A DNA stretch of 64,000 nucleotides. Source: an uncultured Rhodospirillales bacterium (GTDB lineage Bacteria > Pseudomonadota > Alphaproteobacteria > CAAGCB01 > CAG-977). The stretch spans positions 21,832 to 85,831 of the forward strand of contig CACYSU010000001.1 in the NCBI GenBank assembly GCA_902777205.1, given 5' to 3'. Made by a program: the position numbers and the translations under genes. Each line of letters opens with the position of its first letter. Position 1 is the first letter of the stretch. Below the pieces are notes generated by a model that saw nothing but the letters and a program-made list of their open reading frames with translations, had not been told where the DNA came from and made no database searches. Positions 3,820 through 24,464 of the stretch are shown here, piece by piece.

Positions 3820-5061
3820 ATGGACACGACTTTTCCGGCTCCCGAACAGCCGATGACGGAAGAAACGCAAGAATCTTCCGAAGAACCTCCGTCTTCCCCT
3901 CTTCCCCACAACCATTCGGAACACGTTATCTCCGACAGATCCCGCCGTTTTCTGCACACTTATTTTCCGCAGACCACCGAAGCCCAATGGAACGACTGGC
4001 GTTGGCAGATCCGCAACAGATTCCGCAAAAAAGCCGACATCGAACGGGTCCTGCATCTGACCGACAGCGAAGCCCGCGCGCTTGAACACGGAAAGAAAGG
4101 CTTTCCCGTCGCGATCACGCCCTACTATATGAGTTTGCTTGATCCCGACGATCCGACACAGCCGTTGCGCCGTTGCGTCATTCCCGTTTCCGACGAATAC
4201 GATATCTCGCCCGAAGAAAAAGTCGATCCGCTGAGCGAAGACCGCGACAGTCCCGTCAAAGGATTGGTTCACCGCTATCCGAACCGCGTCTTGTTCCTGT
4301 CGACCGATTTTTGCAGTACGGCGTGCCGTTATTGCACCCGTTCCCGTCTGATCGGCGCGACGCATCACGAATGCAAACACGATTACTGGGAGCAGGCAAT
4401 CCAATACATCGCCGAACACGAGGAAGTGCAGGACGTCGTCGTATCGGGCGGCGATCCGCTGACTTTGCCGACGGAAACGCTTGAAAAACTGTTAGCCCGT
4501 CTGCGCGCGATCCCGCACGTTTCGATCATCCGGCTCGGGACGAAGACGACAGCCGTTCTGCCCCAGCGCATCACGACGCGTCTGGTCCATATGGTCGCCA
4601 AGTATCATCCCGTCTTTGTCAGTATCCACGCGACCCATCCCGACGAACTGACGCCGGAGATGAAAGCCGCTTGCGAACGGCTGGCCGATGCCGGTATGCC
4701 GATCGGCTCCCAGACCGTTTTGCTCAAAGGCGTCAACGACGATCCGGAAACGATGCGCAAGCTGATGATGGGCTTGCTCTCTTTCCGCGTCAAACCGTAT
4801 TACATTTATCAATGCGACCCCGTCCCCGGATCCCGTCATTTCAGAACGCCCGTTCAGACGGGACTGGACATCATCAAGCATCTGCGCGGCTTCATTTCCG
4901 GATACGCTGTGCCGCACTATGTGATCGACGCTCCGAACGGCGGCGGCAAAGTACCGTTGCTGCCAAACTACGTTGACGGCATCGACGGCGAAAATCTGCG
5001 TCTGCACAATTACGCAGACAAGTCTTACGTTTATCCGGATGTTTTCCGCGAAGGGGTTTAA
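3820..5061 (+). CDS. kamA: Lysine 2,3-aminomutase (radical SAM, KamA type).
   Basis: 413 aa. Contains the C-R-Y-C-T-R radical-SAM CxxxCxxC cluster and the KamA-family hallmarks (AITPYYMSL, GGDPL, DxPNGGGK). Length matches true KamA rather than the shorter EpmB. Confidence 0.85.
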   Translation: MDTTFPAPEQPMTEETQESSEEPPSSPLPHNHSEHVISDRSRRFLHTYFPQTTEAQWNDWRWQIRNRFRKKADIERVLHLTDSEARALEHGKKGFPVAITPYYMSLLDPDDPTQPLRRCVIPVSDEYDISPEEKVDPLSEDRDSPVKGLVHRYPNRVLFLSTDFCSTACRYCTRSRLIGATHHECKHDYWEQAIQYIAEHEEVQDVVVSGGDPLTLPTETLEKLLARLRAIPHVSIIRLGTKTTAVLPQRITTRLVHMVAKYHPVFVSIHATHPDELTPEMKAACERLADAGMPIGSQTVLLKGVNDDPETMRKLMMGLLSFRVKPYYIYQCDPVPGSRHFRTPVQTGLDIIKHLRGFISGYAVPHYVIDAPNGGGKVPLLPNYVDGIDGENLRLHNYADKSYVYPDVFREGV

Positions 5062-5062
5062 A

Positions 5063-6034
5063 ATGCGCATAGGAATCACTTACGACCTGAAAAGCGATTA
5101 TTTAAAGGAAGGCTTTTCAACGGAACAAGTCGCCGAATTCGACTGCGAGGAAACGATCGACGCGATCGAAAACGCCATCAGAAACGAAGGCCACACGCCC
5201 GACAAAATCGGCAACGTCAAAGCGCTGGTGAAGCGCCTGGCCGCCGGCGACCGCTGGGATTTGGTCTTTAACATCGCGGAAGGCATCGACGGTATGGGAC
5301 GCGAGGCGGAAGTCCCCGCTTTATTGGAAGCGTATCACATTCCCTCCACTTTTTCGGGGGCGGATCTGATGGCTCTGACGCTGAACAAGGCGATGACCGA
5401 CGCGGTCGTTCGGTCTTACGGCGTGCCGGCGTGCGAATTCTTCTTGGTCAAAGAAGCGGCGGATATCGATGATATGCCGCTGTCCTATCCCGTGTTTGCC
5501 AAACCCGTCGCCGAAGGAACCAGCAAAGGCATTTCGGCGAAATCCTGCGTCCATAACAAAGCCGAATTAAAAGACGTCTGCACCGATTTGTTGGAACGTT
5601 TTCACGAACCCGTTCTGGTCGAAACATATCTGTCCGGACGGGAATTCACCGTCGGCCTGATCGGCAGCGGCAAGAACGCCCGCGTCATCGGTGTTGCGGA
5701 AATCGTTCTGGGCGAAAAAGCGGAACAGGAAGCGTACACCTACGAAAACAAACAGAAATACGAAGACCGCGTCAGATACGTTCTGGTTGACGAACCGAAA
5801 GTCGCCGAAACGGCGTTGAAAGCGTGGGAAGCTTTGGACTGTCTGGATGCGGGACGCATCGACGTCCGGCTGGACGCACAGGGCACGCCGCGCTTTATCG
5901 AAGTCAATCCTTTGGCGGGATTGAATCCGACTTATTCCGATTTGCCGATTTTATGTAAAATGGCAGGAATGGATTACCAGACGTTGATCGGGGAAATTCT
6001 GAAATCCGCGATTCACAGAGTCAAAAACAGTTAG
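5063..6034 (+). CDS. ATP-grasp enzyme, D-alanine--D-alanine ligase family (function unknown).
   Basis: ATG at 5063 lies one nt after the kamA stop, giving MRIGITYDLKSDY.... Ddl-like N-domain and ATP-grasp core (GREFTVGLIG, EVNPLAGL). Confidence 0.75.
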   Translation: MRIGITYDLKSDYLKEGFSTEQVAEFDCEETIDAIENAIRNEGHTPDKIGNVKALVKRLAAGDRWDLVFNIAEGIDGMGREAEVPALLEAYHIPSTFSGADLMALTLNKAMTDAVVRSYGVPACEFFLVKEAADIDDMPLSYPVFAKPVAEGTSKGISAKSCVHNKAELKDVCTDLLERFHEPVLVETYLSGREFTVGLIGSGKNARVIGVAEIVLGEKAEQEAYTYENKQKYEDRVRYVLVDEPKVAETALKAWEALDCLDAGRIDVRLDAQGTPRFIEVNPLAGLNPTYSDLPILCKMAGMDYQTLIGEILKSAIHRVKNS

Positions 6035-6531
6035 AAATCCATCGTGTAAATCAGGCAATCGTCCCCTGCCGCATAGTAGTTTTTCAGGCGCGCTTCTTCC
6101 TTAAAACCGCACGATTGATAAAATTTTTGCGTCGGCAGATACTGTTCCCGTCCGGCCGTCTGTAAAACAAGCTTTGTCGCCCCGAAACCTTTCACCAGAC
6201 GGACGACCTCCTTCATCAGCTGTTTGCCAAGCCCTTGTCCGCGGCAATTGTTATGCACGGCAATCCAGTAAATTTCAAAGCTTGACACCGTGCAGGGCAC
6301 GCGCGCGAAACAGGCGTAGCCAAGCGTTTTGTCCCCGTCATCCAAGAAAACAAAGTCGTAGTTTTCCGGTGAATTGTCGTCCGCCAACGCTTTTTCGGCC
6401 AATTCGATCGCGACGTCGATTTCATCCGGCGCTTCCTCAAAAAATCCCGTCGAAGAAAGAATTTCGCGAACAGCGTCCACATCCCGCGGAAAAATCTCAT
6501 TTCGAAAAAGCATTGGCGACGATCCTTTCAA
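6031..6531 (-). CDS. GNAT family N-acetyltransferase.
   Basis: 166 aa. Acetyl-CoA binding motif R-G-Q-G-L-G-K-Q-L. Overlaps the stops of both flanking ATP-grasp genes. Confidence 0.75.
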   Translation of the reverse strand: MKGSSPMLFRNEIFPRDVDAVREILSSTGFFEEAPDEIDVAIELAEKALADDNSPENYDFVFLDDGDKTLGYACFARVPCTVSSFEIYWIAVHNNCRGQGLGKQLMKEVVRLVKGFGATKLVLQTAGREQYLPTQKFYQSCGFKEEARLKNYYAAGDDCLIYTMDF

Positions 6532-7429
6532 TGACTTCTTTATCGCTCAATCCGGCTTCGTGCGCCATCGCGATAAAACCGGAATCCGGCGCGATACAGG
6601 GATTCGTGTTCAAATCAATGATGAACAGTACCCCTTTGGCGTTCATCCTGAAATCGATCCGCGTGTAGCCGCGCAAATCCAGAACGTCTTTGCATTTCAA
6701 AGCGACGGCGGAAAGCCTTTCCCTGACTTCGTTTTCGACGTCAAACGACCGGCGGCTGAGTTGATAAGCGTCGCAGTCCTCGTTCCATTTCGCTTCATAC
6801 GTCAGAATCTTATGCCCTTTGAAATCGGGGGAAAAGCACATCTCCGCCGGCGGCAGAATCTCATCGCCCAACAAAGCGACGTTAAATTCCCGCCCGTCGA
6901 TATATTCTTCGGCGATCCACGCCAGACCGGTTTCCCGCTCTTTTTGTTTCAACGCACTCCGCAATTCGTCTTCGGACGCCGGAGAAACGACACAGGTATC
7001 GTCCAAATGCGCGGAAGCGTGTTCCGTTTTCGCTTTCAGCAAATAGCTTGCCCCCGCCCGATAAACCGAAGACGGCGCGGGCAATCCGTTTTGCAAAAAC
7101 AGCCGCTTTGCCAAATCCTTGTCCGCGCTGACCAGATGCGCGAACGTCCTGTTTCCCGTATACGGCAGACGCAATATGTCCAACAGCTGCGGCGCGAAAA
7201 CCGCCAATCCGCCCTGAGAACAAACGGATTCCGTCAGGTTGAAAACGACATCGGGGGCATACCGTTGAAGCGTGCCGATCGTCTTTTCCAAATCGGCGTA
7301 AAACGGGATTTGCCGGACTTCGTTTCCGTCGAATAAAACGCTTTCGATAAATCCGGCCTCCGTCAACGTATCCATAGCGTCCGGTGAAGACGGGTTTATC
7401 AGGTCATCTCTTAAAACGGCGATTTTCAT
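6497..7429 (-). CDS. ATP-grasp enzyme, D-alanine--D-alanine ligase-like (second copy).
   Basis: Start taken at ATG 7429 (MKIAVLRDD...), preceded by GGCGG. Ddl-like architecture (EEYIDGREFNVALLG, IIDLNTNP). Confidence 0.75.
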   Translation of the reverse strand: MKIAVLRDDLINPSSPDAMDTLTEAGFIESVLFDGNEVRQIPFYADLEKTIGTLQRYAPDVVFNLTESVCSQGGLAVFAPQLLDILRLPYTGNRTFAHLVSADKDLAKRLFLQNGLPAPSSVYRAGASYLLKAKTEHASAHLDDTCVVSPASEDELRSALKQKERETGLAWIAEEYIDGREFNVALLGDEILPPAEMCFSPDFKGHKILTYEAKWNEDCDAYQLSRRSFDVENEVRERLSAVALKCKDVLDLRGYTRIDFRMNAKGVLFIIDLNTNPCIAPDSGFIAMAHEAGLSDKEVIERIVANAFSK

Positions 7430-7451
7430 TTTTCCGCCCCGTAAATGCAAA

Positions 7452-7480: not shown

Positions 7481-7484
7481 GAAT

Positions 7485-7560
7485 GGTGCGCCCGGCGGGA
7501 TTCGAAACCACGACCCTCGGCTTCGGAGGCCGATACTCTATCCAGCTGAGCTACGGGCGC
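7485..7560 (-). tRNA. tRNA-Arg (anticodon CCG).
   Basis: The reverse complement is GCGCCCGTAGCTCAGCTGGATAGAGTATCGGCCTCCGAAGCCGAGGGTCGTGGTTTCGAATCCCGCCGGGCGCACCA. Full cloverleaf, anticodon loop CUCCGAA, CCA encoded. Confidence 0.9.
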
Positions 7561-7670: not shown

Positions 7671-7744
7671 TGGGGCGTAGCCAAGCGGTAAGGCAACGGA
7701 CTTTGACTCAGTTAGTCTTGGTTCGAGTCCAGGTTCCCCAGCCA
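7671..7744 (+). tRNA. tRNA-Gln (anticodon UUG). Two mismatches, both on the 3' side of stems.
   Basis: TGGGGCGTAGCCAAGCGGTAAGGCAACGGACTTTGACTCAGTTAGTCTTGGTTCGAGTCCAGGTTCCCCAGCCA. It resembles E. coli tRNA-Gln (3-bp D stem, UUCGA T-loop, G73, CCA). G29 is opposite A41 and C6 is opposite U67. Confidence 0.75.
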
Positions 7745-8132: not shown

Positions 8133-8357
8133 ATGGAACGAACCTGTAGAGAAGCCTGCAACATATCCCCCGCCGGATTGATGACACCGCGTGACGCCGC
8201 CGTTTACATCGGCGTCAAGATCAACACGCTTGCCGTCTGGCGTATGACGAACAAATACGGCTTGCCGTTTGTCAAATTGGGAAAAGTCGTCCGATACCGC
8301 AAAACCGATTTGGACGAGTGGATCAACAAAAACGTATCAACAGACAGGGCGGAGTAA
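8133..8357 (+). CDS. AlpA-family phage/ICE transcriptional regulator-excisionase (HTH).
   Basis: ATG 8133 is preceded by AAGGAGG. The sequence RDAAVYIGVKINTLAVWRMTNKYGLPFVKLGKVVRYRKTDLDEWI fits the AlpA/Xis HTH pattern. Confidence 0.7.
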   Translation: MERTCREACNISPAGLMTPRDAAVYIGVKINTLAVWRMTNKYGLPFVKLGKVVRYRKTDLDEWINKNVSTDRAE

Positions 8358-8501: not shown

Positions 8502-9293
8502 TCACAGTTTTTGCAGATACGGAATCAATGTTTCGTGTGATAACAATTTAACATCAGCCGCATTTGCCAGTTTTCTCGCGGAATCGGTATAATCTTGATT
8601 GGAAACGACGCACGCATAATCGCAATTATAAAATTTCTGTCCCGCGATGACTTCCTGAACTGCGGAATTTCCGATAAGACTTGAATAGAATTTACACTGT
8701 ATCGCGATATGAGTCCGGTCTTTTCTGACAATTAAATCAACACCCTGATCACCCGTTTTCGGTGTCATTCCACATTCAAAACCGGCTGATACGCAAAGTT
8801 CACGAACAAACCGTTCATAATCTTCGCCTGTTTGAATATTCGATACATTAAAATCAATTTCCGCAACTTCTTTTGCTTTTTCAAAGCAACGGAAGAAAAA
8901 CTCTTGCGGCATATTCTTATTTTCTCTCAAAACTTTTCTAACAAAATACTTTAAATCTTCATCAAACTGTTCTTCGTTGAAAGTTTCAATTCCATATTCA
9001 TCAACAACATTTGCTCTATTAAACTTCGTTTTCAAAACAGCATAATGTTTTACCATTTCAGAAATTACATATTTTTCGAACTCATCAAATTCCTTTTCTG
9101 CAACTTCTTTTGCTTGTTCAAAGCAATGAAAGAAAAACGCTTGTGGCATATTTTTATTTTCTTTCAAAACGTTTCTAACAAAATACTTTAAATCTTCATC
9201 AAACTGTTCTTCATTAAAAGTTTCAATTCCATATTCATCAACCACTTTCGCTCTACTGAACTTTGTTCTCAAAACAGCATAATGTTTTACCAT
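8502..9293 (-). CDS. Mrr-catalytic-domain (PD-(D/E)xK) restriction-endonuclease-like protein with a duplicated N-terminal 79-aa module.
   Basis: The C-terminal region (GDQGVDLIVRKD...IAIQCKFY...) fits the Mrr_cat D...(D/E)xK pattern. N-terminal residues 1-79 and 80-158 are about 85% identical. Confidence 0.65.
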   Translation of the reverse strand: MVKHYAVLRTKFSRAKVVDEYGIETFNEEQFDEDLKYFVRNVLKENKNMPQAFFFHCFEQAKEVAEKEFDEFEKYVISEMVKHYAVLKTKFNRANVVDEYGIETFNEEQFDEDLKYFVRKVLRENKNMPQEFFFRCFEKAKEVAEIDFNVSNIQTGEDYERFVRELCVSAGFECGMTPKTGDQGVDLIVRKDRTHIAIQCKFYSSLIGNSAVQEVIAGQKFYNCDYACVVSNQDYTDSARKLANAADVKLLSHETLIPYLQKL

Positions 9294-9350
9294 TTCAGAA
9301 ATTACATATTTTTCAAACTCGTCAGCTTCTTTTTTACGTATTTCTTCTTC
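8820..9350. repeat. In-frame tandem duplication (2 x 237 bp) plus a partial third copy at the 5' end of the Mrr-like gene.
   Basis: The anchor string cataatgttttaccatttcagaaattacatattttt occurs at 9041 and 9278, a period of 237 bp (79 codons). A partial copy runs from 9294 to about 9350. Confidence 0.8.
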
Positions 9351-10807: not shown

Positions 10808-11744
10808 TTACTTTACCACCCACTTGCCGCCTTTGAGAGAACCGACGCGCTCAATGATGCCTTCGTCTTTCATCTTTTTCAGCTGCCATTTAATGCCGCT
10901 TTCGGAAATACCGACGATTTCCGCCAGTTCCTGACGGCTGATCTGCGGATTCTTCCTGATTGCGTCCAAGATTTTTTGGGTAGTTTTTTCCCTAGTTTTT
11001 TCCCTGTTTTTCTTTCCGGCTTTATCGTCCGCTTCGGCAAACGGCTTGTTATAGCGGAACGTTACGCGGAAGAAAGTGTCCGAAATCTCGAACACGTCCG
11101 GCGCGTAAGCGTTCAAAATCCGCCGCACGCCCGACCCAAGACGCTCGACCAGTTCCATATCCTGAAAAATTCTCATCAATTCGGGATTGCGCGGACACGA
11201 CTTGCCGTTGAAAAAGTCTTCTTTCGTCATTCCCCACGGCAAGCCGCCCGTTGACGTGATCTCTATTCTGTCCGAAAATATTTCGAACTTCGGCGGATTG
11301 TTGTATGAATAATCGTTATGCAGTATCGCGTTAATGACCGCTTCTCTTAATGCTTGCGGATCGACCATCGGGCGTTCTTCGCGCTTGGTTGCCGTTACGC
11401 GAGCGTAAATCCTGTTTTCAACGAAAAACTTGTCCAAGACCTGTTCGGTCGCCTTGATTAAAGAGCAATATCCGAAGTTCTTATTTTCCGTCAAAACGTC
11501 CCGATCCGTTCAGACGTTCGCCGGCGATGTCAAACAAGCCCATAACGGACGGACGAATCCCCGTTATCAGGCGGTCTTTGATTTCCAGTTGAAGCGCGTC
11601 GCACTTGTCAACGCCGACGGGATTCCCGTTCTTGTCAATGCCGATATAGATCGTTCCGCCGTGCGCGTTCAGAAACGCCACCGCTTCTTTTTCCAAAGCG
11701 GCAGTCAGTTTTTCTTTGTATTCCGTGCGTTCGTTTTCAACCAT
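10808..11744 (-). pseudogene. AlbA_2 (Schlafen-like divergent AAA) + HATPase_c_4 + C-terminal wHTH protein (RecG-C-like 'putative transcriptional regulator'), disrupted by a frameshift near 11481-11494.
   Basis: ORF 11481..11744 encodes the AlbA_2 N-domain. ORF 10808..11494 encodes the ATPase-like and wHTH part (QELAEIVGISESGIKWQLKKM). The two overlap by 14 nt in different frames. Confidence 0.5.
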
Positions 11745-12184
11745 AAAGCACCCCTTTTCCTATTTATAAAAGATAACGCCGCCATTCTCAAACAAGAAAT
11801 TTTTTTGCCGTTTTTGTGCCACAAAAAGGCTATCCTGCAAAAAAAGTCGGATATCTGTTTTTCAAACATTTAGGCGGCGGGGAAGTCTTTGATATTTCAG
11901 AGGGGCTTTCCTTTGCAGGATACGCGATTTGTCGGACAAAATCGCACGTGGAATCCCGCCTTACGCCTCTTTGCCCTGCCGGTTTTGTCCCGACCCGGTA
12001 AAGTCCGTCCCTTTCAATCCGACAATCTGCAAATTAAATCCGTTTATTTTCAATAAGATATAAACCATTTTCGCGCTTTTACGGCGGAAATTGCACGTTT
12101 GCAAAATTGCCAAGCGGTCGGCGTCGGTCTTTTCTGGAAGAGTTCCGTCAAAAGGCGGTCATTTTTACGAAAGGACACCAAACT

Positions 12185-12403
12185 ATGAAAACATATTTAA
12201 CACGCAAGGAAGCTTCCTCTTACCTGATGGAAAAGGGATTGAACCGGACGTCGGCGACGTTGGCGAAATACGCGACGATCGGCGGCGGTCCGAAGTTCCG
12301 CAAGTTCGGCAAAACGCAAGTCGTTTACGATGTCGCGGACTTGGACGCTTGGGTGGCGGGACAGCTTTCCGCGCCCGTTCATTCGACTTCGGAACAGAGG
12401 TGA
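12185..12403 (+). CDS. AlpA-family HTH regulator/excisionase (second copy).
   Basis: ATG 12185 is preceded by AAAGGA. MKTYLTRKEASSYLMEKGLNRTSATLAKYATIGGGPKFRKFGKTQVVYDVADLDAWV. Confidence 0.7.
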   Translation: MKTYLTRKEASSYLMEKGLNRTSATLAKYATIGGGPKFRKFGKTQVVYDVADLDAWVAGQLSAPVHSTSEQR

Positions 12404-12408
12404 ACGGT

Positions 12409-12720
12409 ATGGCAAAAGTGAAGATTGCTTTACGATTGCCGCCCGAACACAAAGCGATGCTCGACAGGTTTGACAACCCGTCGGGCGTCGCCCGCAGATT
12501 TATCGCGGCGGGGTTGGCGAAAGCGAACGCTCCGGGAACGAAAGAAATCGAAAAGCTGACGGAAATCCGCGAGGAACTGCGTCGGATCGGCGTCAATCTG
12601 AATCAGATCGCCCGCGCGTTGAACGGCGGCGCGGAAGCGAAAAACATCAAAGAACACTTGGAACGCCTTGCGCTTTTGCGGGAAAGGATTCTCCGCCTGT
12701 TGAGGTATTACTATGGTTAA
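12409..12720 (+). CDS. mobC: MobC-family mobilization (relaxosome accessory) protein.
   Basis: Contains the conserved R-I-G-V-N-L-N-Q-I-A-R motif. ATG 12409 is preceded by GAGGTGA. Confidence 0.8.
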   Translation: MAKVKIALRLPPEHKAMLDRFDNPSGVARRFIAAGLAKANAPGTKEIEKLTEIREELRRIGVNLNQIARALNGGAEAKNIKEHLERLALLRERILRLLRYYYG

Positions 12721-13456
12721 ACGCAAACACGATTGGCTTGACGAGCATATCCGCGGCATCCGGCGGGAGCGTCCAGGACTGCCCTTTCATTACGAGCCTT
12801 TACAAAAGCACTTTATCAGCCTGTCCCGTTCCCGTCCGTTTGAAGCGGTGTTCAAGATAGTCGGTTACGCCAAAAGCGTCGGCACGGTTTGCGCTATGGC
12901 GGAATACGTCGCGGAAAAGTCGAAAGGCTTGGAAGAAAAGCTGACCTTGACGGACGAAACGGAAACGCGTCTGACGGCGCAGGAGTTCAAAGAACGGCTG
13001 ATCGAAGAACCGGAAAGCGGACGCAAAAACGGGCGGTGCGCCGTTCATTTTATCGTGTCTTTCCCGAACGGGTGCGGTATGGCCTCGGAGGATTTGGAAG
13101 CGTTTGCGACCGAATATATGCGGCCGTTCGCCGAAAACGGATATTCGTATGTGTTCGCCGCGCACCGTCATCAACGGCACAAACACATCCACTTTATTTT
13201 GAAACTGAACAACGGCTTGAAACGGTTGGAGTTCAATCGGCGGGAAATCGAGCAAATGCGCTTGCGCCAGTCCGAAATCGCCAGACAGTTCGGCGTCGAA
13301 TTGCAGGCGACGCGGTTCCGGGACAGGGACTTTTCTCTGACGCAAGTCGTCATTCCCCGCAAACACAAAACGCTTGAACAGCTGAAACGATCCCGCGCCG
13401 CCGCCGCCCGTCCCAAGCCCGCAGAACATTCAAAAGAAAGAGGTATCGAACGATGA
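12713..13456 (+). CDS. Relaxase/mobilization nuclease domain protein (MOBQ/MOBP-like), short at 247 aa.
   Basis: Histidine triad H-R-H-Q-R-H-K-H-I-H-F-I-L. Start overlaps the mobC stop (ATGGTTAA). Confidence 0.75.
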   Translation: MVKRKHDWLDEHIRGIRRERPGLPFHYEPLQKHFISLSRSRPFEAVFKIVGYAKSVGTVCAMAEYVAEKSKGLEEKLTLTDETETRLTAQEFKERLIEEPESGRKNGRCAVHFIVSFPNGCGMASEDLEAFATEYMRPFAENGYSYVFAAHRHQRHKHIHFILKLNNGLKRLEFNRREIEQMRLRQSEIARQFGVELQATRFRDRDFSLTQVVIPRKHKTLEQLKRSRAAAARPKPAEHSKERGIER

Positions 13457-13463
13457 CATTTTT

Positions 13464-15074
13464 TTATTGTTGTTCAATAGAAATCGCTGCATATCCCCAT
13501 TCCATTCTTTTTTTGTTAAAACTTGGAATACGGATTCCAGAAACAGCCTGATTGTCTATAAGATGAGCTTCCGCTATTAGTTTTTGAGAAATATAAACGT
13601 CTTCGACAAAACCGAACGAAGCATTTTCGGGGATCATTAAAACACCCGAAAATGAGTGTTTTAAAGAAGATGCTTCATTCGTTTCTTTAACGGAAACTGT
13701 TTCTTCTTTTCCAATGCCATACTCAATGGTCTTGGTTTCAACGACGGAATAAATCGCCGGCGGATTAAGCTTCGAAAAGGGTATCACGGCATCATTGAGA
13801 TTCTCAAAAAGTATATGAAAAACTTTCTTTTCATAATTGACGTGATCGACAATTCCTTTCTTCGTTTTTGCCAAATCCCATTCTGCTCCATCTCTTTTGC
13901 GGATATCAAGAATATGGAATTTGTCCTTTTCCATTTTTCCTTTTACCCAAACGGGCGTTCCGTTCGGGAAATTTTCTTTTACTGATTTAAACACTCCGGA
14001 CAAGACGATTCTATTGTCGGCAAGTTGAATAAAAACTTTTCTTTTTTGAGGTTTCTTATTAAAGAAGTCTCCGATAATGCCGGAATAATCGGGCAAATTT
14101 TCTGTTAGCAATTTGCTTGCCTGTAAAGAGTTTTCCCGATAAAAAGCATCATTTACCTGAAGCGGCGTTACAGAATCTTCACGACTTTTATGCCAAGCGT
14201 TATCAAGCGGCTTAAGAGACCAACCGTTATCTTCTATTAGTTTTTTCATTGATTGAAAAATACTTTTAGCTCTGCCCAAATCGTTTTTTTCTTCCAACAT
14301 CTGCGCAATGCTCAGGTAGATTTTATACTTAAAGTTATCATCTTCCGGACACAGAACGGCTTTACAAAGGCAGGAAAATTTCAGTTCGTCGTCCGTTATG
14401 CAATCCGCCAAAAGTTTCCACGCCCAAGAACAATTACTCTTTTCCAACAAAAACTCTTTTGCTGTCTCTGCCGCTTCTTCTTTTTTTCCAACGGAAAGCA
14501 ATAGTTCAACGTTATCTTTTAAAAGAAACTCGTTTTCAGGACACTTTTTACTCGCAAGGTCAATATAAGGAAGAATCCAATTAACGGCATTTTCCGTATT
14601 TCTAAGATCACCCCTTAAAATATCCTTCACGGCATAACGGATGCTTTTTTCCGCCAGAGACGGATATTCATTCTTGCCATCCTTGCTTTTTCCTTTTACC
14701 CAATCATCATCTTTTAGTTCGTCCAGATTCCACAAATAAAGAAAATGGATCAAACGAAAATCGTTTTCTATAAGAAAATCTTTTAAATCGAGTTGTTCCC
14801 ATAAATGGACAACTTGAAACAAAAAAAGGTGATGAACCTGGGAAACCTTTTTCTTTTTCCTGAAAAAATAAGCGTATTCATTAACGCATTTTTTAACACC
14901 GGAATAATTTTCTTCCTGAATGTGTTTTTTTAACAACTTATATAAAGTCCACGCGTAAGAAACAAGGCTTTCTTCGTTTCCCTGTTCGGCCAGGCTTTTA
15001 TATATTTCACGCGCTTCTTCCAACAAACCTTTATCGGATAATTCCTTTGCTTTTAAATAAAGATCGGTATCCAT
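13464..15074 (-). CDS. Hypothetical TPR-like repeat protein with two C-terminal cold-shock-like OB-fold modules. Partner of the helicase.
   Basis: 536 aa from ATG 15074. RBS AGGAA sits 7 nt upstream. The start is one nt after the helicase TGA (TGAtATG). An alternative TTG at 15101 is possible. The N-terminal half is alpha-helical and repeat-like. The C-terminal half has two ...FGFVEDVYIS... / ...HVNYEKKVFHILF... CSD-like segments. Confidence 0.65.
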   Translation of the reverse strand: MDTDLYLKAKELSDKGLLEEAREIYKSLAEQGNEESLVSYAWTLYKLLKKHIQEENYSGVKKCVNEYAYFFRKKKKVSQVHHLFLFQVVHLWEQLDLKDFLIENDFRLIHFLYLWNLDELKDDDWVKGKSKDGKNEYPSLAEKSIRYAVKDILRGDLRNTENAVNWILPYIDLASKKCPENEFLLKDNVELLLSVGKKEEAAETAKEFLLEKSNCSWAWKLLADCITDDELKFSCLCKAVLCPEDDNFKYKIYLSIAQMLEEKNDLGRAKSIFQSMKKLIEDNGWSLKPLDNAWHKSREDSVTPLQVNDAFYRENSLQASKLLTENLPDYSGIIGDFFNKKPQKRKVFIQLADNRIVLSGVFKSVKENFPNGTPVWVKGKMEKDKFHILDIRKRDGAEWDLAKTKKGIVDHVNYEKKVFHILFENLNDAVIPFSKLNPPAIYSVVETKTIEYGIGKEETVSVKETNEASSLKHSFSGVLMIPENASFGFVEDVYISQKLIAEAHLIDNQAVSGIRIPSFNKKRMEWGYAAISIEQQ

Positions 15075-15075
15075 A

Positions 15076-17865
15076 TCAGCATTCCTGTAGATGTTGGGCA
15101 ATAAGACAAGCTAAGTCGTTAGCTTCCGTCTCAGATGAAGAAAATTTTTTCACGACTTTCGGTGCAGCAAGGAAGTCCTGTGTTGATCCTCTATACGAAA
15201 AATCAAGAACGGAGATCCGATCGTTTTTAAAGAACGTATAACGAAGCGTAAAAGGGATTTCTTGCAAAGAAATAACCTTATAGCCTTGTTCTTCTGCGAT
15301 TTTTGATATTCTGGCATCAAAATTCCGCTTGAAATCATCTGTCGGCAATGCCCTGTCAATCGTAACTTTCCCAATAAAACATCCATACAAACCGTTAATT
15401 TTTTCTGAAATTTTTTCGGAAAGAGTGTTCCTGTTTTTTGGAGAAATCTTCGTTATGAAATAGCTTCCGTTATAGTAGATGTCGAATATTGAATTTTCTG
15501 CTCCGCTACCAAAAACATATTCTTCCATATAGGCGTTCGATTTTGTTGAAATGATTTTGATATCCGTGCCGTCAAGAGCGGACAGAACAAATCTGTTGAT
15601 TTTCGCTATCGGCGTTTCTTCCATATCCGAAACGTTTTTTTGCGTATTGGTTTTATCGTATTTGTTTTGCACCGTCATTTCTTTTCTTCCAAAATCAACG
15701 GGGGCTTTGATTTCACTTCCTATATCCCTATTTCTGAAATTTAAAAGATACAGTTTCCGTTTGCAACGCGTTACCGCCGTATAAAGCTCATGGAAGTATT
15801 CCGTTTTATTTCTATTTTGAGCGAGCACATCCGCAATGACGTAATCCCATTCACTTCCCTGTGCTTTATAACAGGTGATCGCGTATCCGAATTTAACGCA
15901 AAGGGCATTAAAGAACGGATCCGTTTTCAGCCTGTTTTTAAATTCTTCCGAATTCGCTTTGATACCAATATCTCCCATTCTTATCTTAAAATTTATATAC
16001 TGGGATTTTTTTTCATCGGAAGATAAATCCACATGGTTGCTGTAAAGAAGATTTTCAATGATATAAACATCCCGCATGTTAAACAGCTTGTCGTCAACAT
16101 CTTTAAACTGTAAATCAACTTTTCTATATATGATCGTTACCCATTTCGTTTCATTTGTATTTTCGTTTTTAGTGGATATACGAGCTTTTTGTTCGATACG
16201 TTCTTTAACGTTCGTAACAACCCCGTAATCTCCGTTATAAACGGTATAGCCTCCGATAAACGCCGTTTTTGTGATTATCAGCTTGTCCCCTTTCTGCAAT
16301 TCGGTCTTTTCGGTCGTTTCGGTTTTGTGAAGCGGTGCGTCCGGAAACAGGATTTTCCTGACGGATTGATTCAAATCGGCAATTCTTGCGTTTTCCCAGG
16401 CAATAACCATACAGTTCTTTAAAGACCTTACGGATCCGTCATATATTTCTTTAAAACTGTTTTCAAAATCCGTTGAAATTCGGATATCCGATGAATCAGG
16501 ATCGACATGCAGTTTATAAAAATTACCGTTTTCAATACTATCCCGTATTTGTGTTGCGAATTTTAATATATCGCCGTCTTTCTGACGAACGATATCTGTC
16601 ATCAGAAATTCCGAAGCTGAAGCTCCGTGAATGCAGTTTTTCAGATACTCTGCCGACAAAGCTGGGGAAAAACCTTTTTTATCGTCCGACGCCACCGGCG
16701 GTAATTGAGCGGGATCGCCAATAAAAATTATTTTTTTATCATGATCGTTGTTATCCAAATTCACATATTCCAAAAAGTCGGATAGAAGTTTCCCTGTTCC
16801 GAATTTAATAAATTCGGCTTCGCTGTTACTATCGGATACCATTGACGCTTCATCAACGATATACACCGTATTGGCGGGATTATCGTTGACTTTAAGTTCT
16901 GCATAAAAGCGGTATGTTTCCGAATATTCGACACCTTCCGTCTTATATTCTTTCATCCCGCTGATATTGTAAATTAGGCTGTGAAGTGTTCCGGCGCTTG
17001 CCCCCGCTTTTTGCGCAAGCACCTGAGAGGCTTTTCCCGTCGGAGCCGCCAATTTATAACAACGTCCTTTATTAGCCAGGAACTCGACCAATCCTTTGAC
17101 AATAAAAGTTTTACCTGTTCCCGCATATCCTTTTAACAGGAAAATATGTTCTTGAGGATTGCGAAGAAAATCCGCTATTTTCCGTAAAGCCTCCGATTGG
17201 CTTGGCGACAGGGTGTAATTATCAAAATACACTTCCAAAGAATCATTTTCATCTAAGATCCTTTCAGAAACCGAATTGTCTATTTTGATTTCGGCACATA
17301 CTTCTGAAGATTTTTGTGAAAATCTTTTCTGTTCCTGTTTATCCTCCGCCGTTTCCTGATTGTCCGGAATCTCAAATTGAGAGATTTCTTCTATGTTTTT
17401 CTTTTCTTCTTCCGATTGATCAGATTTCGGACATTCTTCTTCTTTCAACGGAGGAATAAAATCCATTTCGGCGTCTTTTCCCGTTTTAACCTTGTAATAC
17501 CAAACGGAAATATCATAGACATTCTTCAACGTTTCGATTTGTTCTTCATCTGTCAGAGGTTTATCTCCGATCTTCGGATGAACTATCTTGTTGACGATCA
17601 AGCGCACCGAATGAAATTTCGGTAAAATATCATATCCGACCAAACGCATAAATTTTAAATTCTTGAGCCGTTCGTGCAAGGTTGCCGCTTTTTTTGTCGG
17701 TATGCAAAACTCTGTATAAATCATTCTGACGAGAGTTTCGATAAATCCGCGCATTTTTATCATCGCGCGTTCAGGATTTGAAAAAATATTTTTTTCAGCC
17801 AATGCTGTAAATTCGTATAAATTGGGGAAAGATTCACTTAAAAATTCAAAATTCTTGGACATCAC
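15076..17865 (-). CDS. DUF4145-like N-domain + SF1 RecD/TraA-family helicase (AAA_30/UvrD_C_2) + unknown C-terminal domain of about 230 aa.
   Basis: 929 aa. Walker A is GYAGTGKT. Motif Ia is LAAPTGKAS. Walker B is VYIVDEASM. Motif III is IIFIGDPAQLPPV. Motif V is YAITCYKAQGSEW. Motif VI is YTAVTRCKRKLYL. The N-terminal 115 aa ends in R-L-I-V-N-K-I-V-H, which is DUF4145-like. Confidence 0.85.
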   Translation of the reverse strand: MMSKNFEFLSESFPNLYEFTALAEKNIFSNPERAMIKMRGFIETLVRMIYTEFCIPTKKAATLHERLKNLKFMRLVGYDILPKFHSVRLIVNKIVHPKIGDKPLTDEEQIETLKNVYDISVWYYKVKTGKDAEMDFIPPLKEEECPKSDQSEEEKKNIEEISQFEIPDNQETAEDKQEQKRFSQKSSEVCAEIKIDNSVSERILDENDSLEVYFDNYTLSPSQSEALRKIADFLRNPQEHIFLLKGYAGTGKTFIVKGLVEFLANKGRCYKLAAPTGKASQVLAQKAGASAGTLHSLIYNISGMKEYKTEGVEYSETYRFYAELKVNDNPANTVYIVDEASMVSDSNSEAEFIKFGTGKLLSDFLEYVNLDNNDHDKKIIFIGDPAQLPPVASDDKKGFSPALSAEYLKNCIHGASASEFLMTDIVRQKDGDILKFATQIRDSIENGNFYKLHVDPDSSDIRISTDFENSFKEIYDGSVRSLKNCMVIAWENARIADLNQSVRKILFPDAPLHKTETTEKTELQKGDKLIITKTAFIGGYTVYNGDYGVVTNVKERIEQKARISTKNENTNETKWVTIIYRKVDLQFKDVDDKLFNMRDVYIIENLLYSNHVDLSSDEKKSQYINFKIRMGDIGIKANSEEFKNRLKTDPFFNALCVKFGYAITCYKAQGSEWDYVIADVLAQNRNKTEYFHELYTAVTRCKRKLYLLNFRNRDIGSEIKAPVDFGRKEMTVQNKYDKTNTQKNVSDMEETPIAKINRFVLSALDGTDIKIISTKSNAYMEEYVFGSGAENSIFDIYYNGSYFITKISPKNRNTLSEKISEKINGLYGCFIGKVTIDRALPTDDFKRNFDARISKIAEEQGYKVISLQEIPFTLRYTFFKNDRISVLDFSYRGSTQDFLAAPKVVKKFSSSETEANDLACLIAQHLQEC

Positions 17866-18063
17866 AAAACCTGTGCTTACGATGTGGAAACACTATCAGT
17901 GTAAAGCTTTTTATCCATAAAACAAGGATAATATCGCTTGTGATATAAAAAGTGGCTCTATCGAATATTTTATCAAGCACTTTCCCGAATAACTGATAAA
18001 ATACATAACTTTTTAGTAATTTAGAGGGCTTCTGTTTTGAAAAAAAGAAGCCCTCTAATTGCC

Positions 18064-19242
18064 TTACACCCCGATCAATTCCGCGATTTTTTCGCTGACG
18101 ACGTTGGCGGCGTCAACAACAACCTTTTCCGTCAGGTGCGTGTATCGGTTCGTAATCGTGTTGATGTGATGCCCCAACAATCCCGCGATAATATTGTCAG
18201 AATATCCCAACGCCGCCGCCATTGACGCGAAACTGTGCCTTAAAGCGTGCAGGCAGAAGCCCGTTATCCCGATTTCCGGCTTGACGTGCGTCGCAAAATA
18301 CGCCGGCATTTTCGCCGTTACTTCGGGCTTGAAAAGGTTGCCCTCTGTCGGATCGCCGCTCCGTTCTTTCAAAAACAGCAGATACCTTTTCGCCGCGCTT
18401 CCGAACGGACGGTTTTGCGCTCCCGTCTTCGTGTCTGGAAAGCGAAACGCCTGATTGTCAAAATCGACATATTCCCACTTCAACGTCGTGATCTCGCTTC
18501 TGCGACACCCCGTCAACGCCAACAAAATAAAAATGCTCCTGACCGTTTCTTCCCGTTCGTGCTTGATTTGAAGAATGTTCCCGAACTTCACGAACCCTTT
18601 TTCGTCAAGGAAGACCATTCTTTTCGCCGTCGAAAGCGTGTCCAGTCTGATTGCCGGATTCATATCCGCCCAATCGTTGCGAATGGCGAACTCATACATC
18701 GAGCAAAGCGTCTTTCGCGCGTGATTTGCCGCCGCGACAAACTTGTGATCCGCCGGATAACCACGCCTGTCCATATAAGCTCCGCCCACCATATCGTTGT
18801 AGAACTTCTGAACGTCGGCGCGGCGCAACTCCTTGATAAAACGGTTCCCGAAAGCCGGTAAAATCTGACTTCTGACGGAAGCCGAATACACGGCGAAAGA
18901 AGACGCTTTGATGCGCGGCTTCCGGTCGGTCAGGAACTTGTCGGCAAGATCGGCGACCGTCATTTCTTTGCGCTTTTCGATTTTGTCGGAAGCGGGATCT
19001 TTGCCCTGAACGACCAAAGCCAGTATTTTCTTGGCTTCGTCGCGGGCTTGCGCCGGAGCGATCTGCGTCGTCTTGGCAATCGTGATTTTCTTTTGCTTGC
19101 CGTAAACGTTCCGATACATAACGATATAGCTTGCGGACGATTTGCCCACCCGCACGCCGAAACCTTTTAAAACGTCGTCAAAATAAGTCTTTTCCACGCC
19201 GTCAAACGTCAGGGAATTGATAAAAGTCTTGTTCAAATTCAT
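18064..19242 (-). CDS. int: Tyrosine-type site-specific integrase (P4-like, N-terminal arm-binding domain).
   Basis: 392 aa. N-terminal G-F-G-V-R-V is DUF4102-like. C-terminal HALRHSFASMAAALG...LLGH...TNRYTHL carries the R-H-R-Y catalytic signature. Confidence 0.9.
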   Translation of the reverse strand: MNLNKTFINSLTFDGVEKTYFDDVLKGFGVRVGKSSASYIVMYRNVYGKQKKITIAKTTQIAPAQARDEAKKILALVVQGKDPASDKIEKRKEMTVADLADKFLTDRKPRIKASSFAVYSASVRSQILPAFGNRFIKELRRADVQKFYNDMVGGAYMDRRGYPADHKFVAAANHARKTLCSMYEFAIRNDWADMNPAIRLDTLSTAKRMVFLDEKGFVKFGNILQIKHEREETVRSIFILLALTGCRRSEITTLKWEYVDFDNQAFRFPDTKTGAQNRPFGSAAKRYLLFLKERSGDPTEGNLFKPEVTAKMPAYFATHVKPEIGITGFCLHALRHSFASMAAALGYSDNIIAGLLGHHINTITNRYTHLTEKVVVDAANVVSEKIAELIGV

Positions 19243-21915: not shown

Positions 21916-22776
21916 ATGAAAAAGAAATATATCGCGTTCATGGCGTTGCCGTTGCTGTGCGGGTGTGCGTTAAACTCAAGAGATTTTGAGTACGTTCAAG
22001 GAAATTTATATGGAGAAAATTCGTCAATGGTTTCGGATACGATTGGTAAAAAAGATGAAATCATAGATATAGATAATGATGTTTTTAAAACTGATAAGAC
22101 GATTCTTTCATATATGCCGGAAGAAAACGGTTGCCGTTTTAAGCAAATTTACGGATATGTTAAGGAGGGAAATTATAGGGAAACTGATGTCAGAGAATTA
22201 TTTGTAGATACGCCGTGTGCAGAATTTGATTTCAAAAACTATGCAGAATATCTGAACGAAAAACGTGTAAAGAGACAAGTTGAGCTCTTTGAAAAAAATA
22301 AAGACGATAAAATGTTTGTTTCATTTTTAAAAAAAGGAAAAAATTGTGTCATAGACTTTTCTGCCGGTGTTGCTGAGAATGGAAAATATCGCGAAACGGA
22401 TGTAAAACGTGTGACTTTCGGTTCAAGAGACTGTAAAGGAATCATAGATGATTTTATTGTAGGAAATTGGAACTGGATCGATGAAAAAAAGATAAAACAT
22501 CCTGTCGAAAATGAGGACTTTTGGAGTCATAAAACGGCAGGAAAAACAGATAAAGCAGTTGTTTCCATGAAACAGGACAGAAGCAGTTGTGTCTATAGCA
22601 GATCTTACGGTTGGTCTTTGAATGGAAAATTTACGGAAACCGATTTCAAGCAAATCACGTTGGGAAATACACAATGCAGTTATGTACGCTCTTTGGTGAA
22701 AGGAAAACAAAATTCAATTTTTACAGACGGTGAACTTGAGAGCGAGATGAATCTGAAGCCCATTAAAAAGCCTTGA
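21916..22776 (+). CDS. Lipoprotein with three internal G-K/N-Y-R-E-T-D-V-containing repeats.
   Basis: Signal peptide plus lipobox L-L-C-G-C-A. Low GC. Repeat modules of about 80 aa. Confidence 0.6.
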   Translation: MKKKYIAFMALPLLCGCALNSRDFEYVQGNLYGENSSMVSDTIGKKDEIIDIDNDVFKTDKTILSYMPEENGCRFKQIYGYVKEGNYRETDVRELFVDTPCAEFDFKNYAEYLNEKRVKRQVELFEKNKDDKMFVSFLKKGKNCVIDFSAGVAENGKYRETDVKRVTFGSRDCKGIIDDFIVGNWNWIDEKKIKHPVENEDFWSHKTAGKTDKAVVSMKQDRSSCVYSRSYGWSLNGKFTETDFKQITLGNTQCSYVRSLVKGKQNSIFTDGELESEMNLKPIKKP

Positions 22777-22864
22777 ATAAATTTTTATGTTCTATGATGG
22801 CGGAGTGAAAACTCCGCCATTTAGAAATAACTAAAATGTCCGAAGTGTGTATTGCTGCTACGCT

Positions 22865-23350
22865 CTATATCAACACGCTCCACGCCTTTAGCTTGTCGTC
22901 AAACGACAAATGCGCGTTGGCGGGCGAGGTGGACGGCAGAGGGACGAGTGTCAGCGTGTTGGCAAACGGTGCGGTTTTGAACGCTTTTATAAAGCTGTCG
23001 TGCGCTTTTTGCCCGTTGAAAAACACGGTCTTTATCTGCGGATATTGTTTGAAAAAGCGTTCAAAGTCGTTCGGAACGGCGTTGCGGATATCGGAATCCA
23101 AACTGCCGTCGCGGGCGCAGGTCGAAATCACGTCCCACAGCGCGATGTGGCGCGACAAGAGCAAATTCAGCTTGTCGTCATACGAAGCGAACGGGTAGGG
23201 CGCGCCGAACAGCTTTGCCATAATCCGCCAGAACGCGTTTTGCGGGTGGGCGTAATACTGCGCTTGTTCCAGCGATTTTACCCCCGGCATCGACCCCAAA
23301 ATCAATTTGGTGCAGCCGGAATCAACGGACGGGGCGAAACATTCGGGCAT
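22865..23350 (-). CDS. UDG-superfamily DNA glycosylase (TDG/Mug or hypoxanthine-DNA glycosylase-like).
   Basis: GCTKLILGSMPGVKSLEQAQYYAHPQNAFWRIM matches the Mug/UDG motif-1 plus HPxNxFW pattern. Start taken at ATG 23350 to avoid overlapping the neighbouring gene. Confidence 0.65.
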   Translation of the reverse strand: MPECFAPSVDSGCTKLILGSMPGVKSLEQAQYYAHPQNAFWRIMAKLFGAPYPFASYDDKLNLLLSRHIALWDVISTCARDGSLDSDIRNAVPNDFERFFKQYPQIKTVFFNGQKAHDSFIKAFKTAPFANTLTLVPLPSTSPANAHLSFDDKLKAWSVLI

Positions 23351-23354
23351 GGCG

Positions 23355-23963
23355 TTATTTTCCGTTTTCGTTAAATAAATAAAGTTTGTTTTCAATAACT
23401 TCATTCATTAAGTAGCGCAATGTTTTTCTGCGGACATAAGCGTTAACAGTTCCATGATTGAAAAAAGGAGAGAGAAATATTAAGGGAAGCCACATTACAT
23501 CCTTGATTTTTTCAGGGGCGGTTATGGAATAAATTTCTTTATCGCCGGAAAAAACGAACATTGAAACATCTTTGTTGAAATAAATCCACATTGGAAATAT
23601 ACCCAATACAGCACCCCAAATTGCGCCATAGTTGTTTTGGTTTTCAATAGATGTTCCTGTTATTTTTACATCAAAATGCAAATGATATTTACTTTTATCA
23701 TTAAGTGTTGGTACATAATGCACTTTATTAAATAGGTTTGTTTCAGATAAATATTCCCTTATTTTTAATGTCATAGACGTGTAATCATAAAACTGTTCGT
23801 CGCCGGCTTGTTCATAATAGGATAGGGAAAATGTTATGTTTTTCTTTTGTTCCGCCGGTATGGATATGTTTGTATCTAATGAAACATTCGGGATGTATCC
23901 GGATGAGTATGTCGCGCATGAAAACAAGAGGGGTAAGATAAAGAATAAGCTGAAAAATCTCAT
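23355..23963 (-). CDS. Lipoprotein, hypothetical.
   Basis: Signal peptide with lipobox L-F-S-C-A. Low GC. Confidence 0.55.
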   Translation of the reverse strand: MRFFSLFFILPLLFSCATYSSGYIPNVSLDTNISIPAEQKKNITFSLSYYEQAGDEQFYDYTSMTLKIREYLSETNLFNKVHYVPTLNDKSKYHLHFDVKITGTSIENQNNYGAIWGAVLGIFPMWIYFNKDVSMFVFSGDKEIYSITAPEKIKDVMWLPLIFLSPFFNHGTVNAYVRRKTLRYLMNEVIENKLYLFNENGK

Positions 23964-23972
23964 GTTTCCGCC

Positions 23973-24464
23973 TCATTTTTTTTCTTTTGCCAAAAACAAG
24001 GCGAGCTGTTCATAAATATTTGTTTTGTACGATTGGTTTACATATTGGTATGAGTACGAAGTGGATGTTCCATAATATCTGTTATTTCCAACCGTTCCGG
24101 AATAATGGGAAAAGGTCGGGTTGGGGATCGTTAAAACATAGTTGTGTTCAGCTTCTTTTACTTTGGTTGATGAAAGAATAACGACAGTAGCCCCTTTTTC
24201 TTTCGCGGTATCAACGGCCAAGGCTCTGGCCGTCCATTCGTCTATGAAATGAGCGGAACCCAGCAGTATGTAGCCTTGATTTTTATATTCTTGAAAGCGT
24301 TCGGATAAATCCGTCGTTTCAATAACTTTGACAAAAGATTTTTTTGCCAAGGGATGCTCTTGCCGGTCAATGTTTTCGTCATTATAATAAATGGAGAAAT
24401 TATTTTTTTGACAAGCTGATAACAAGAACAGGCAACTGAAAAGGAAAAATGTCTTTTTCATCAT
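23973..24464 (-). CDS. Lipoprotein, hypothetical.
   Basis: Signal peptide with lipobox L-L-S-A-C. Low GC. Confidence 0.55.
   Translation of the reverse strand: MMKKTFFLFSCLFLLSACQKNNFSIYYNDENIDRQEHPLAKKSFVKVIETTDLSERFQEYKNQGYILLGSAHFIDEWTARALAVDTAKEKGATVVILSSTKVKEAEHNYVLTIPNPTFSHYSGTVGNNRYYGTSTSYSYQYVNQSYKTNIYEQLALFLAKEKK

Follow-up and report, generated by a model that had tools for sequence, protein, structure and literature searches.

A TOTE-type gene pair in an uncultured Rhodospirillales bacterium

A pair of adjacent genes on a contig from an uncultured Rhodospirillales bacterium (NCBI GenBank assembly GCA_902777205.1, contig CACYSU010000001.1) is almost certainly a two-gene TOTE-type conflict system, corresponding to the PADLOC candidate PDC-M16. 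Both genes lie on the minus strand of the 64,000-nucleotide (nt) stretch analysed here (contig positions 21,832 to 85,831; hereafter the window), and all coordinates are positions within it. Gene A (15076..17862) encodes a 928-amino-acid (aa) protein with the order putative HEPN (DUF4145) domain, superfamily 1B (SF1B) helicase and two TBP-TOTE repeats, and gene B (13464..15074), starting from an ATG, encodes a 536-aa TPR-OB partner. The name TOTE stands for 'TPR, OB, TBP, Effector'; Aravind, Iyer and Burroughs described these conflict systems in 2022, and the architecture given in a preprint that cites them (PMC12458937) is a TPR-cold-shock domain (CSD) protein together with an effector-fused TBP domain. 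The PDCs are 145 'phage defence candidates' that entered PADLOC after being derived by guilt-by-embedding, from their position within BREX, DISARM and type I restriction-modification loci (bioRxiv 10.1101/2024.01.29.577857, Payne et al.).

The assignment is carried by profile matches to both proteins. PADLOC model PDC-M16A matched gene A at 8e-234, with residues 1-923 aligned to model positions 1-926 of 930, and PDC-M16B matched gene B at 1.9e-97, so that two adjacent genes fit both models. Four TOTE Pfam families (PF22721, PF22707, PF22708 and PF22860) were present in the pair, all above their curated cut-offs. The distribution of the modules is also that of a TOTE system: TPR-type helical repeats and S1/cold-shock-like OB domains occur in one protein (gene B), the TBP-TOTE domain (PF22721) occurs in the neighbouring protein (gene A), and an enzymatic effector, composed of the HEPN domain and the SF1B helicase, is part of the TBP-TOTE polypeptide and is encoded 1 nt from the TPR-OB gene. 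An initial annotation of this DNA, made from the letters alone, had described a DUF4145 domain and SF1 helicase paired with a TPR and cold-shock-like OB protein, a make-up that the Pfam and PADLOC matches bear out. It had also held that no named system has this architecture, whereas the full-length PDC-M16A and PDC-M16B matches and the TOTE Pfam families provide one; the PADLOC check that it had proposed for the two proteins returned a catalogued candidate rather than an undescribed system. As the kind is already catalogued, both in Pfam and in PADLOC, the window adds no new category. The value of the locus lies instead in its being a compact, complete 4.4-kb copy with intact predicted catalytic motifs, identical on several contigs and carried on a mobile element.

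Gene boundaries and junction

The open reading frame (ORF) of gene A extends over 15076..17865, with a GTG directly before the ATG at 17862 (ORF listing and translation). The ATG agrees with the N-termini of homologues; the ORF reported initially is present, and from this ATG its product is 928 aa rather than 929 aa. Read from the sequence, the junction between the two genes is CAGGAATGCTGAtATGG (15072..15086, minus strand). It comprises an AGGAA (15086-15082) located 7 nt 5' of the gene B ATG (15074-15072), the gene A stop TGA (15078-15076), and a single spacer base (T, 15075) between the stop and the start (TGAtATG). The two ORFs, the one-base junction and the internal AGGAA had all been pointed out in the initial annotation and stand on direct reading.

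Upstream of gene A is an AT-rich intergenic region of 201 nt (17863..18063, minus strand), which presumably contains the gene A-B operon's own promoter. A scan for promoters and terminators with a consensus promoter model yielded scores no better than those for shuffled sequence. A perfect 10-bp hairpin (AGAGGGCTTC...GAAGCCCTCT, 14-nt loop, no T-run) was observed at 18020-18053, directly 3' of the stop codon of the neighbouring integrase gene and 5' of the TOTE operon.

Domain architecture of gene A

The N-terminus of gene A (aa 1-128; 17479..17862, minus strand) is an all-helical domain of the DUF4145 type. Pfam placed a weak DUF4145 match, below the cut-off, at residues 22-114, PF13643 was matched by 12 of 13 aligned homologues (best E-value, 1e-11), and the AlphaFold2 model of gene A, built from 26 homologues (mean predicted local distance difference test (pLDDT) score, 80.9), has a helical bundle at aa 8-127. 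Four residues of this domain, H84, R87, N91 and H95 (17578-17613), are invariant in all 26 database homologues and in 39 of 39 sequences, which include 38 independently sampled metagenomic homologues at 29-37% identity. Retention of the four-residue motif at an overall identity of ~35% points to catalysis and not just to maintenance of the fold. The spacing of R87 and H95 (Rx7H) is that of the catalytic residues R146 and H154 of RAZR (PD-T7-4), whose DUF4145 domain is a proven RNase acting on single-stranded RNA (ssRNA), with both residues required for defence (PMC13017515). DUF4145 was placed in the HEPN RNase superfamily in 2013, with listed fusions to restriction endonucleases and to a 'UvrD helicase (endoV alpha subunit)' (PMC3710099), and membership of this RNase family makes an RNase plausible as the effector. 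On these grounds, the N-terminal domain of gene A is considered a putative DUF4145-type HEPN RNase domain with a candidate catalytic motif. The DUF4145-like domain and its R...N...H motif had been recognised correctly in the initial annotation, which had missed that DUF4145 is a HEPN RNase family.

Residues 2-188 of gene A also match the NCBIfam HsdR model NF008521 (5.5e-22). Identity as a type I restriction enzyme HsdR was rejected, given that only these residues match (77.7 bits against a cut-off of 729) and that the motor is of the SF1B type. A profile of the N-terminal domain compared with PDB sequences produced chance-level matches only. The domain is followed by a charged, E/K/Q-rich helical linker (aa 129-214; 17221..17478, minus strand), modelled with helices at 150-161, 172-192 and 197-206 and at lower pLDDT.

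The helicase core (aa 215-712; 15727..17220, minus strand) was matched in Pfam by AAA_30, AAA_19 and PIF1 at residues 218-441 and by UvrD_C_2 at residues 659-707, together with a match to SH3_13 at residues 497-555 that fell below the cut-off. Its motifs include Walker A GTGKT (248-252), Walker B DE (337-338), motif III GDxxQLPP (382-389) and motifs V and VI (666-671 and 694-699). Motifs I, Ia, II, III, V and VI are all present within a two-RecA fold bearing an SH3-like insert, as expected of an SF1B helicase, and Dda, RecD2 and Pif1 are the closest structures. These features mark the motor as a Dda/RecD2-like SF1B helicase, which would move 5' to 3'. All of the helicase motif residues that were checked are kept in the 39 sequences, save for one Q427H substitution; the full set of SF1 RecD-like motifs listed at the outset is accordingly both present and invariant in homologues, that substitution apart.

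A disordered linker (aa 727-747) leads to a tandem TBP-TOTE domain (aa 748-928; 15079..15621, minus strand) consisting of two homologous alpha-beta4-alpha repeats, which occupy aa 751-825 and 843-927 in the model. PF22721 matched the C-terminus of gene A in two stretches (71.4-78.5 bits; cut-off, 27; 4.9e-20). Alignment of the repeats to each other by hhalign (probability, 99%; E-value, 5e-18) indicates a homology that fits a pseudo-dimeric TBP-like domain. The earlier statement that the C-terminal domain has no recognisable family is superseded by the PF22721 assignment and the two repeats.

Domain architecture of gene B

The first 325 aa of gene B (14100..15074, minus strand) form a TPR-like helical-repeat superhelix that includes DUF7017 at aa 187-319 (Pfam, 5.7e-27). 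Three consecutive small beta-barrels follow (13470..14090, minus strand), at aa 329-393, 402-464 (S1CSD-TOTE-1) and 473-535 (S1CSD-TOTE-2). PF22708 (28.1-32.4 bits) and PF22707 (59.4-64.3 bits) were both detected in gene B above their common cut-off of 27, and the barrel at aa 329-393 is predicted from the strand pattern of the AlphaFold2 model (mean pLDDT, 89.4) and has only a marginal match, to the tRNA_anti-codon OB family (E-value, 0.096). Two cold-shock-like modules beside the TPR region had been proposed previously; both have Pfam support, and the AlphaFold2 model predicts a third barrel that the proposal lacked. The N-terminus of gene B is ~90 aa shorter than in the common ~631-aa partners. 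One relative, 81% identical, is of equal length, so the short form is a natural variant and not a truncation.

Conservation of the pair

Pairing was assessed in a partner-anchored sample of 80 fetched metagenomic loci, 61 of which had at least 1.2 kb of upstream sequence. A helicase homologue was located directly upstream on the same strand in 57 of these 61 loci, and three of the other four had the same arrangement with a broken gene. The stop codon of the helicase and the start codon of the partner overlap by 4 nt in 40 of the 57 loci and by 1 nt in 8, amounting to overlap in 48 loci in all. Adjacency of the two genes is near-obligate, and their translational coupling is maintained across distant homologues, in line with the obligate co-expression that the initial annotation had read from the junction. 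Conserved pairing, on which the initial annotation had staked its proposal in advance, is thereby found. The two proteins have diverged to about the same degree, with helicase and partner identities of 83% and 81% in the closest relatives and of about 35% and 30% in distant ones.

One locus in the sample (L136, 6758-11085) has no upstream helicase. Downstream, on the opposite strand, it has a UvrD-type helicase (877 aa) and then a shorter SF1 helicase (565 aa), the latter with a TBP-TOTE match of 22.1 bits against the cut-off of 27. The locus is apparently a rearranged version of the TOTE system with three genes.

The N-terminal slot of the helicase family is occupied by DUF4145 in 40 of the 57 loci and by NERD, a PD-(D/E)xK nuclease domain, in five (L140, L143, L147, L150 and L154), which have longer partners (647-758 aa). 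It is empty in helicase forms of ~700 aa, in which the partner is kept (L006, L010, L132 and L148). This distribution suggests that the helicase, the TBP domain and the TPR-OB protein make up a sensing and motor core, with the N-terminal nuclease as an exchangeable effector.

The family is large, with more than 2178 helicase homologues and, for the partner, 1182 representatives of 50%-identity clusters in an exhaustive HMMER search. Word-indexed searches with the partner returned only 4 and 3 proteins, a shortfall that reflects the limited sensitivity of such searches and not rarity, as the HMMER count demonstrates. A genome scan with generic RecD motif patterns recovered at least seven loci (L004-L010) that are true TOTE helicases. 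The pair was found in Endozoicomonas (L004), Leptothrix (L005), a Bacteroidetes genome (L006), Albirhodobacter (L007), Aquipseudomonas (L008), Marinobacter (L084), Pseudomonas benzenivorans (L085) and a further NCBI assembly (L086), as well as on large Acinetobacter plasmids (L174) and a Pseudomonas veronii plasmid (L175). On those plasmids, the annotations read only 'AAA family ATPase', 'tetratricopeptide repeat protein' or 'hypothetical protein'. Fifteen plasmids, of which 9 are mobilizable, carry homologues of the partner. No partner relative was detected in 2.9 million viral contigs, and such relatives are nearly absent from phage genomes, where there was one weak match.

Neighbourhoods of homologous pairs

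Most homologous pairs are chromosomal and lie in varied neighbourhoods that have neither an integrase nor a relaxase. In Marinobacter, the pair is situated between hsdM-hsdS and hsdR, and at least two metagenomic loci give indications of the same hsdM-hsdS-pair-hsdR order; in P. benzenivorans, it follows hsdR-rmuC-hsdM-hsdS. Other pairs neighbour GmrSD, WYL, AAA_15 or RnlA genes, or reverse-transcriptase genes. A Pfam scan of 114 neighbouring proteins from 38 non-redundant homologous loci identified GmrSD_N, type I restriction-modification subunits and reverse transcriptases as the commonest families. No third gene recurred among these 114 proteins, and no relaxase, type IV secretion system (T4SS) or coupling-protein family was among their 25 most frequent Pfam families. 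The 38-locus scan places the homologues among defence-type genes and outside transfer operons; a consistent link to such operons would have counted against the initial proposal.

The carrier element in the window

In the window, the pair is carried on a small integrative mobilizable element composed of an integrase, the TOTE pair, a relaxase and MobC. From low to high coordinates, the order is tRNA-Arg (7484-7560) and tRNA-Gln (7671-7744), an AlpA-like HTH_17 gene (8134-8357), an Mrr_cat gene (8502-9293, minus strand), a split AlbA_2 / HATPase_c_4-HTH gene (10808-11744, minus strand), a MobC-like gene and a short MobA/VirD2-type relaxase of 247 aa (12091..13456, plus strand; Pfam MobC and Relaxase), the TOTE pair, a P4-type tyrosine integrase (18064..19242, minus strand; Pfam Arm-DNA-bind_3, Phage_int_SAM_3 and Phage_integrase) and rpsA. 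The integrase, Mrr-like and AlpA-like genes named in the initial annotation as lying close to the pair are all in place. So is the AT-rich cargo that it described beside the integrase, with a G+C content of 0.37-0.39 over 14-18 kb compared to 0.55-0.62 for most of the window. No convincing direct repeats were detected between the tRNA side and the integrase/rpsA side.

The integrase-TOTE-relaxase-MobC core is common to four contigs (L001, L003, L170 and L171). In a comparison of the window with five contigs (L003, L170, L171, L172 and L173), an identical core was found at two sites, beside rpsA and beside a DUF2441 gene, and the identical integrase was also found beside PPK2, where the contig stops short of any cargo. 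Copies differ in their distal cargo, with Mrr in the window, an EcoRI-type methylase plus GmrSD-HNH in L170, and a DEAD helicase plus DprA in L003. These comparisons indicate that the carrier is active and has a swappable region of defence-type cargo.

Several features of the element and its surroundings were observed alongside. The relaxase (plus strand) and gene B (minus strand) converge with 7 nt between their stop codons (13457-13463), which leaves no room for a terminator between them. The restriction-endonuclease-like Mrr_cat gene contains a 237-nt tandem duplication (8846-9319; two copies, 90% identical) encoding a 79-aa repeat in the N-terminal, non-catalytic half of the protein. An 87-aa ORF with AlbA_2 (SLFN_AlbA_2) overlaps the beginning of a 228-aa ORF with HATPase_c_4 and HTH_24 (10808-11744, minus strand). 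As AlbA_2 and HATPase_c_4 are normally part of one protein, the arrangement resembles a regulator gene that has been frameshifted or split, and the same split is seen on other contigs. Right beside the two tRNA genes, two D-Ala-D-Ala-ligase-type ATP-grasp genes (4973-6034, plus strand; 6497-7450, minus strand) stand on either side of a radical-SAM / lysine-2,3-aminomutase-like gene (3820-5061), and the region 3820-7450 is possibly a small cluster for the modification of peptides or amino acids. Further stretches of low G+C content (0.37-0.41) occur outside the element at 21916-24464 and 1-2000. One such stretch, between rpsA and cmk, contains a UDG-family gene, a lipoprotein gene and two further ORFs, of 286 aa (without a Pfam match) and 202 aa; these genes are also present on related contigs.

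Proposed mechanism and alternatives

The pair probably functions in defence, with RNA cleavage as its output. The proteins of genes A and B would form a complex, with single-stranded nucleic acid bound by the OB barrels and a duplex or an RNA-DNA hybrid by the putative TBP-like saddle. Hybrid binding is a property of the TBP-like N-terminal domain of RNase HIII. Together, the OB and TBP-like modules would recognise a replication or transcription intermediate of the invader, whereupon the SF1B motor would load, translocate 5' to 3' using ATP, and bring or activate the HEPN domain. RNA would then be cleaved by the HEPN domain, which probably dimerises to do so, as other HEPN enzymes do, and this cleavage would block the invader, possibly by abortive infection at the cell's cost. 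More tentatively, we propose that the SF1B helicase, the TBP-like saddle and the TPR-OB partner sense an R-loop or primed single-stranded DNA (ssDNA) and so license the DUF4145 HEPN RNase. If true, a sensor of nucleic-acid structure would be coupled to RNA cleavage through a nuclease slot that is exchangeable for a NERD DNase, and the compact 4.4-kb pair, with its short gene B, would serve well as a model.

Several points weigh against this proposal. Gene A itself scored 18.6-22.2 bits against PF13643, just under the cut-off of 23.1, and its Rx7H spacing falls outside the classical Rx4-6H. The TBP-TOTE domain has no sequence similarity to yeast TBP, and a profile of the C-terminal domain gave chance-level matches only against PDB chain sequences. 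The existence of helicases with no N-terminal nuclease (L006 and L010) means that an RNase is not essential to the core action of the family. The searchable literature yielded no experimental test of TOTE or PDC-M16, so that the defence phenotype is drawn from context. Beyond one citing preprint (PMC12458937), that literature contained nothing on PDC-M16, DUF7017, TBP-TOTE, PF22721 or 'TOTE conflict', and PDC-M16 was not among the eight PADLOC candidate systems tested in PMC12881386.

The ~700-aa forms, which keep their partner and leave the helicase, TBP and TPR-OB modules as the conserved core, would also fit a mechanism at the level of DNA in which the helicase alone acts. ATP-driven unwinding or protein stripping by the A-B complex on ssDNA or R-loops would then hinder replication or recombination of the invader, and DUF4145 would be a regulatory, nucleotide- or RNA-binding, or dimerisation module rather than an RNase. 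Dda, RecD2 and Pif1, to which the helicase is structurally closest, all translocate on ssDNA. We regard this mechanism as unlikely. Conservation of H84, R87, N91 and H95 throughout the 39 sequences points to catalysis, the presence of NERD at the same N-terminal position in other members marks a nuclease slot, and DUF4145 is catalytically required in RAZR.

A function that is selfish to the element, as an addiction or stabilisation module or a weapon against competing plasmids and other elements instead of anti-phage immunity for the host, is improbable. In this lineage, the pair does form a constant, jointly moving core with the integrase, relaxase and MobC, next to distal cargo that varies; that core occurs in at least two chromosomal contexts with the integrase alone in a third, and the partner has the plasmid homologues noted above. 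DUF4145/HEPN proteins (Ishtar) have also been reported to block conjugative plasmids (bioRxiv 10.64898/2026.07.06.735840). Most pairs, however, are chromosomal with no integrase or relaxase, some of them inside type I restriction-modification operons, and anti-plasmid and anti-phage roles are compatible with each other.

A TraA/TraI-like mobilisation helicase, supplying helicase activity during transfer to the adjoining 247-aa relaxase, which has a nuclease domain only and lies beside MobC, was rejected as highly improbable, given that the weak matches to TraA_Ti (2.2e-14) and TraI (1.5e-5) are far below cut-off (TIGR02768, 52.7 against 590; NF010263, 22.5 against 2212), that Pfam detects no Relaxase domain in gene A, that the relaxase is encoded on the other strand and runs towards the pair, that transfer families are missing from the 25 most frequent neighbour families of the 38 loci, and that neither a TPR-OB partner nor a HEPN N-terminus is typical of transfer helicases.

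Comparison with known systems

Read as a TOTE-type defence system with a HEPN effector, the pair shares individual parts with several known proteins. RecD2, Dda and Pif1 SF1B helicases and the RecD of RecBCD have the helicase core fold and all of its motifs in common with gene A, but they lack its HEPN and TBP-TOTE domains and a dedicated partner. Gene A was rejected as an orthologue of RecD2 or RecD on its scores of 131.6 against TIGR01448 (cut-off, 500) and 78 against TIGR01447 (cut-off, 310).

The effector end of gene A resembles other DUF4145 defence proteins. RAZR (PD-T7-4), a zinc-finger plus DUF4145 HEPN RNase (Nature 2026, PMC13017515), has both the DUF4145 domain and the Rx7H spacing in common with gene A, and for BxaP and Ishtar the likeness is limited to the DUF4145 domain. 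All three are single-gene systems with no helicase, TBP domain or TPR-OB partner, unlike the pair in the window. RAZR is activated by assembly on phage protein rings, for which no counterpart is known for the window pair.

A shared logic, in which a cold-shock-like OB module is combined with an SF1 or YprA helicase and with HEPN or other nucleases, links the pair to the type II and III CoCoNuTs (Bell et al., eLife 2024, PMC11090510) and to TALON (PMC12458937), for which RNA is the predicted target. TALON also has TPR-CSD and TBP genes in common with TOTE (PMC12458937). The CoCoNuTs, however, are built on a McrBC GTPase and a UPF1-like helicase, and TALON on a YprA helicase and a NERD nuclease; Pfam and PADLOC model matches place no McrB, McrC or YprA in the window pair.

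The closest correspondence is to PDC-M16 and to TOTE itself. Both window genes match PDC-M16 over their full length and are adjacent. Relatives are embedded in type I restriction-modification operons, the kind of setting by which the PDCs were defined; the window pair differs in being carried on a mobilizable element and not embedded in a restriction-modification system. Relative to the common TOTE form, the window partner has the N-terminus shortened by ~90 aa. The window effector consists of a HEPN domain and an SF1B helicase, and RNase H domains are also reported in TOTE systems (PMC12458937). All four defining modules of TOTE are present in the window pair in the expected arrangement.

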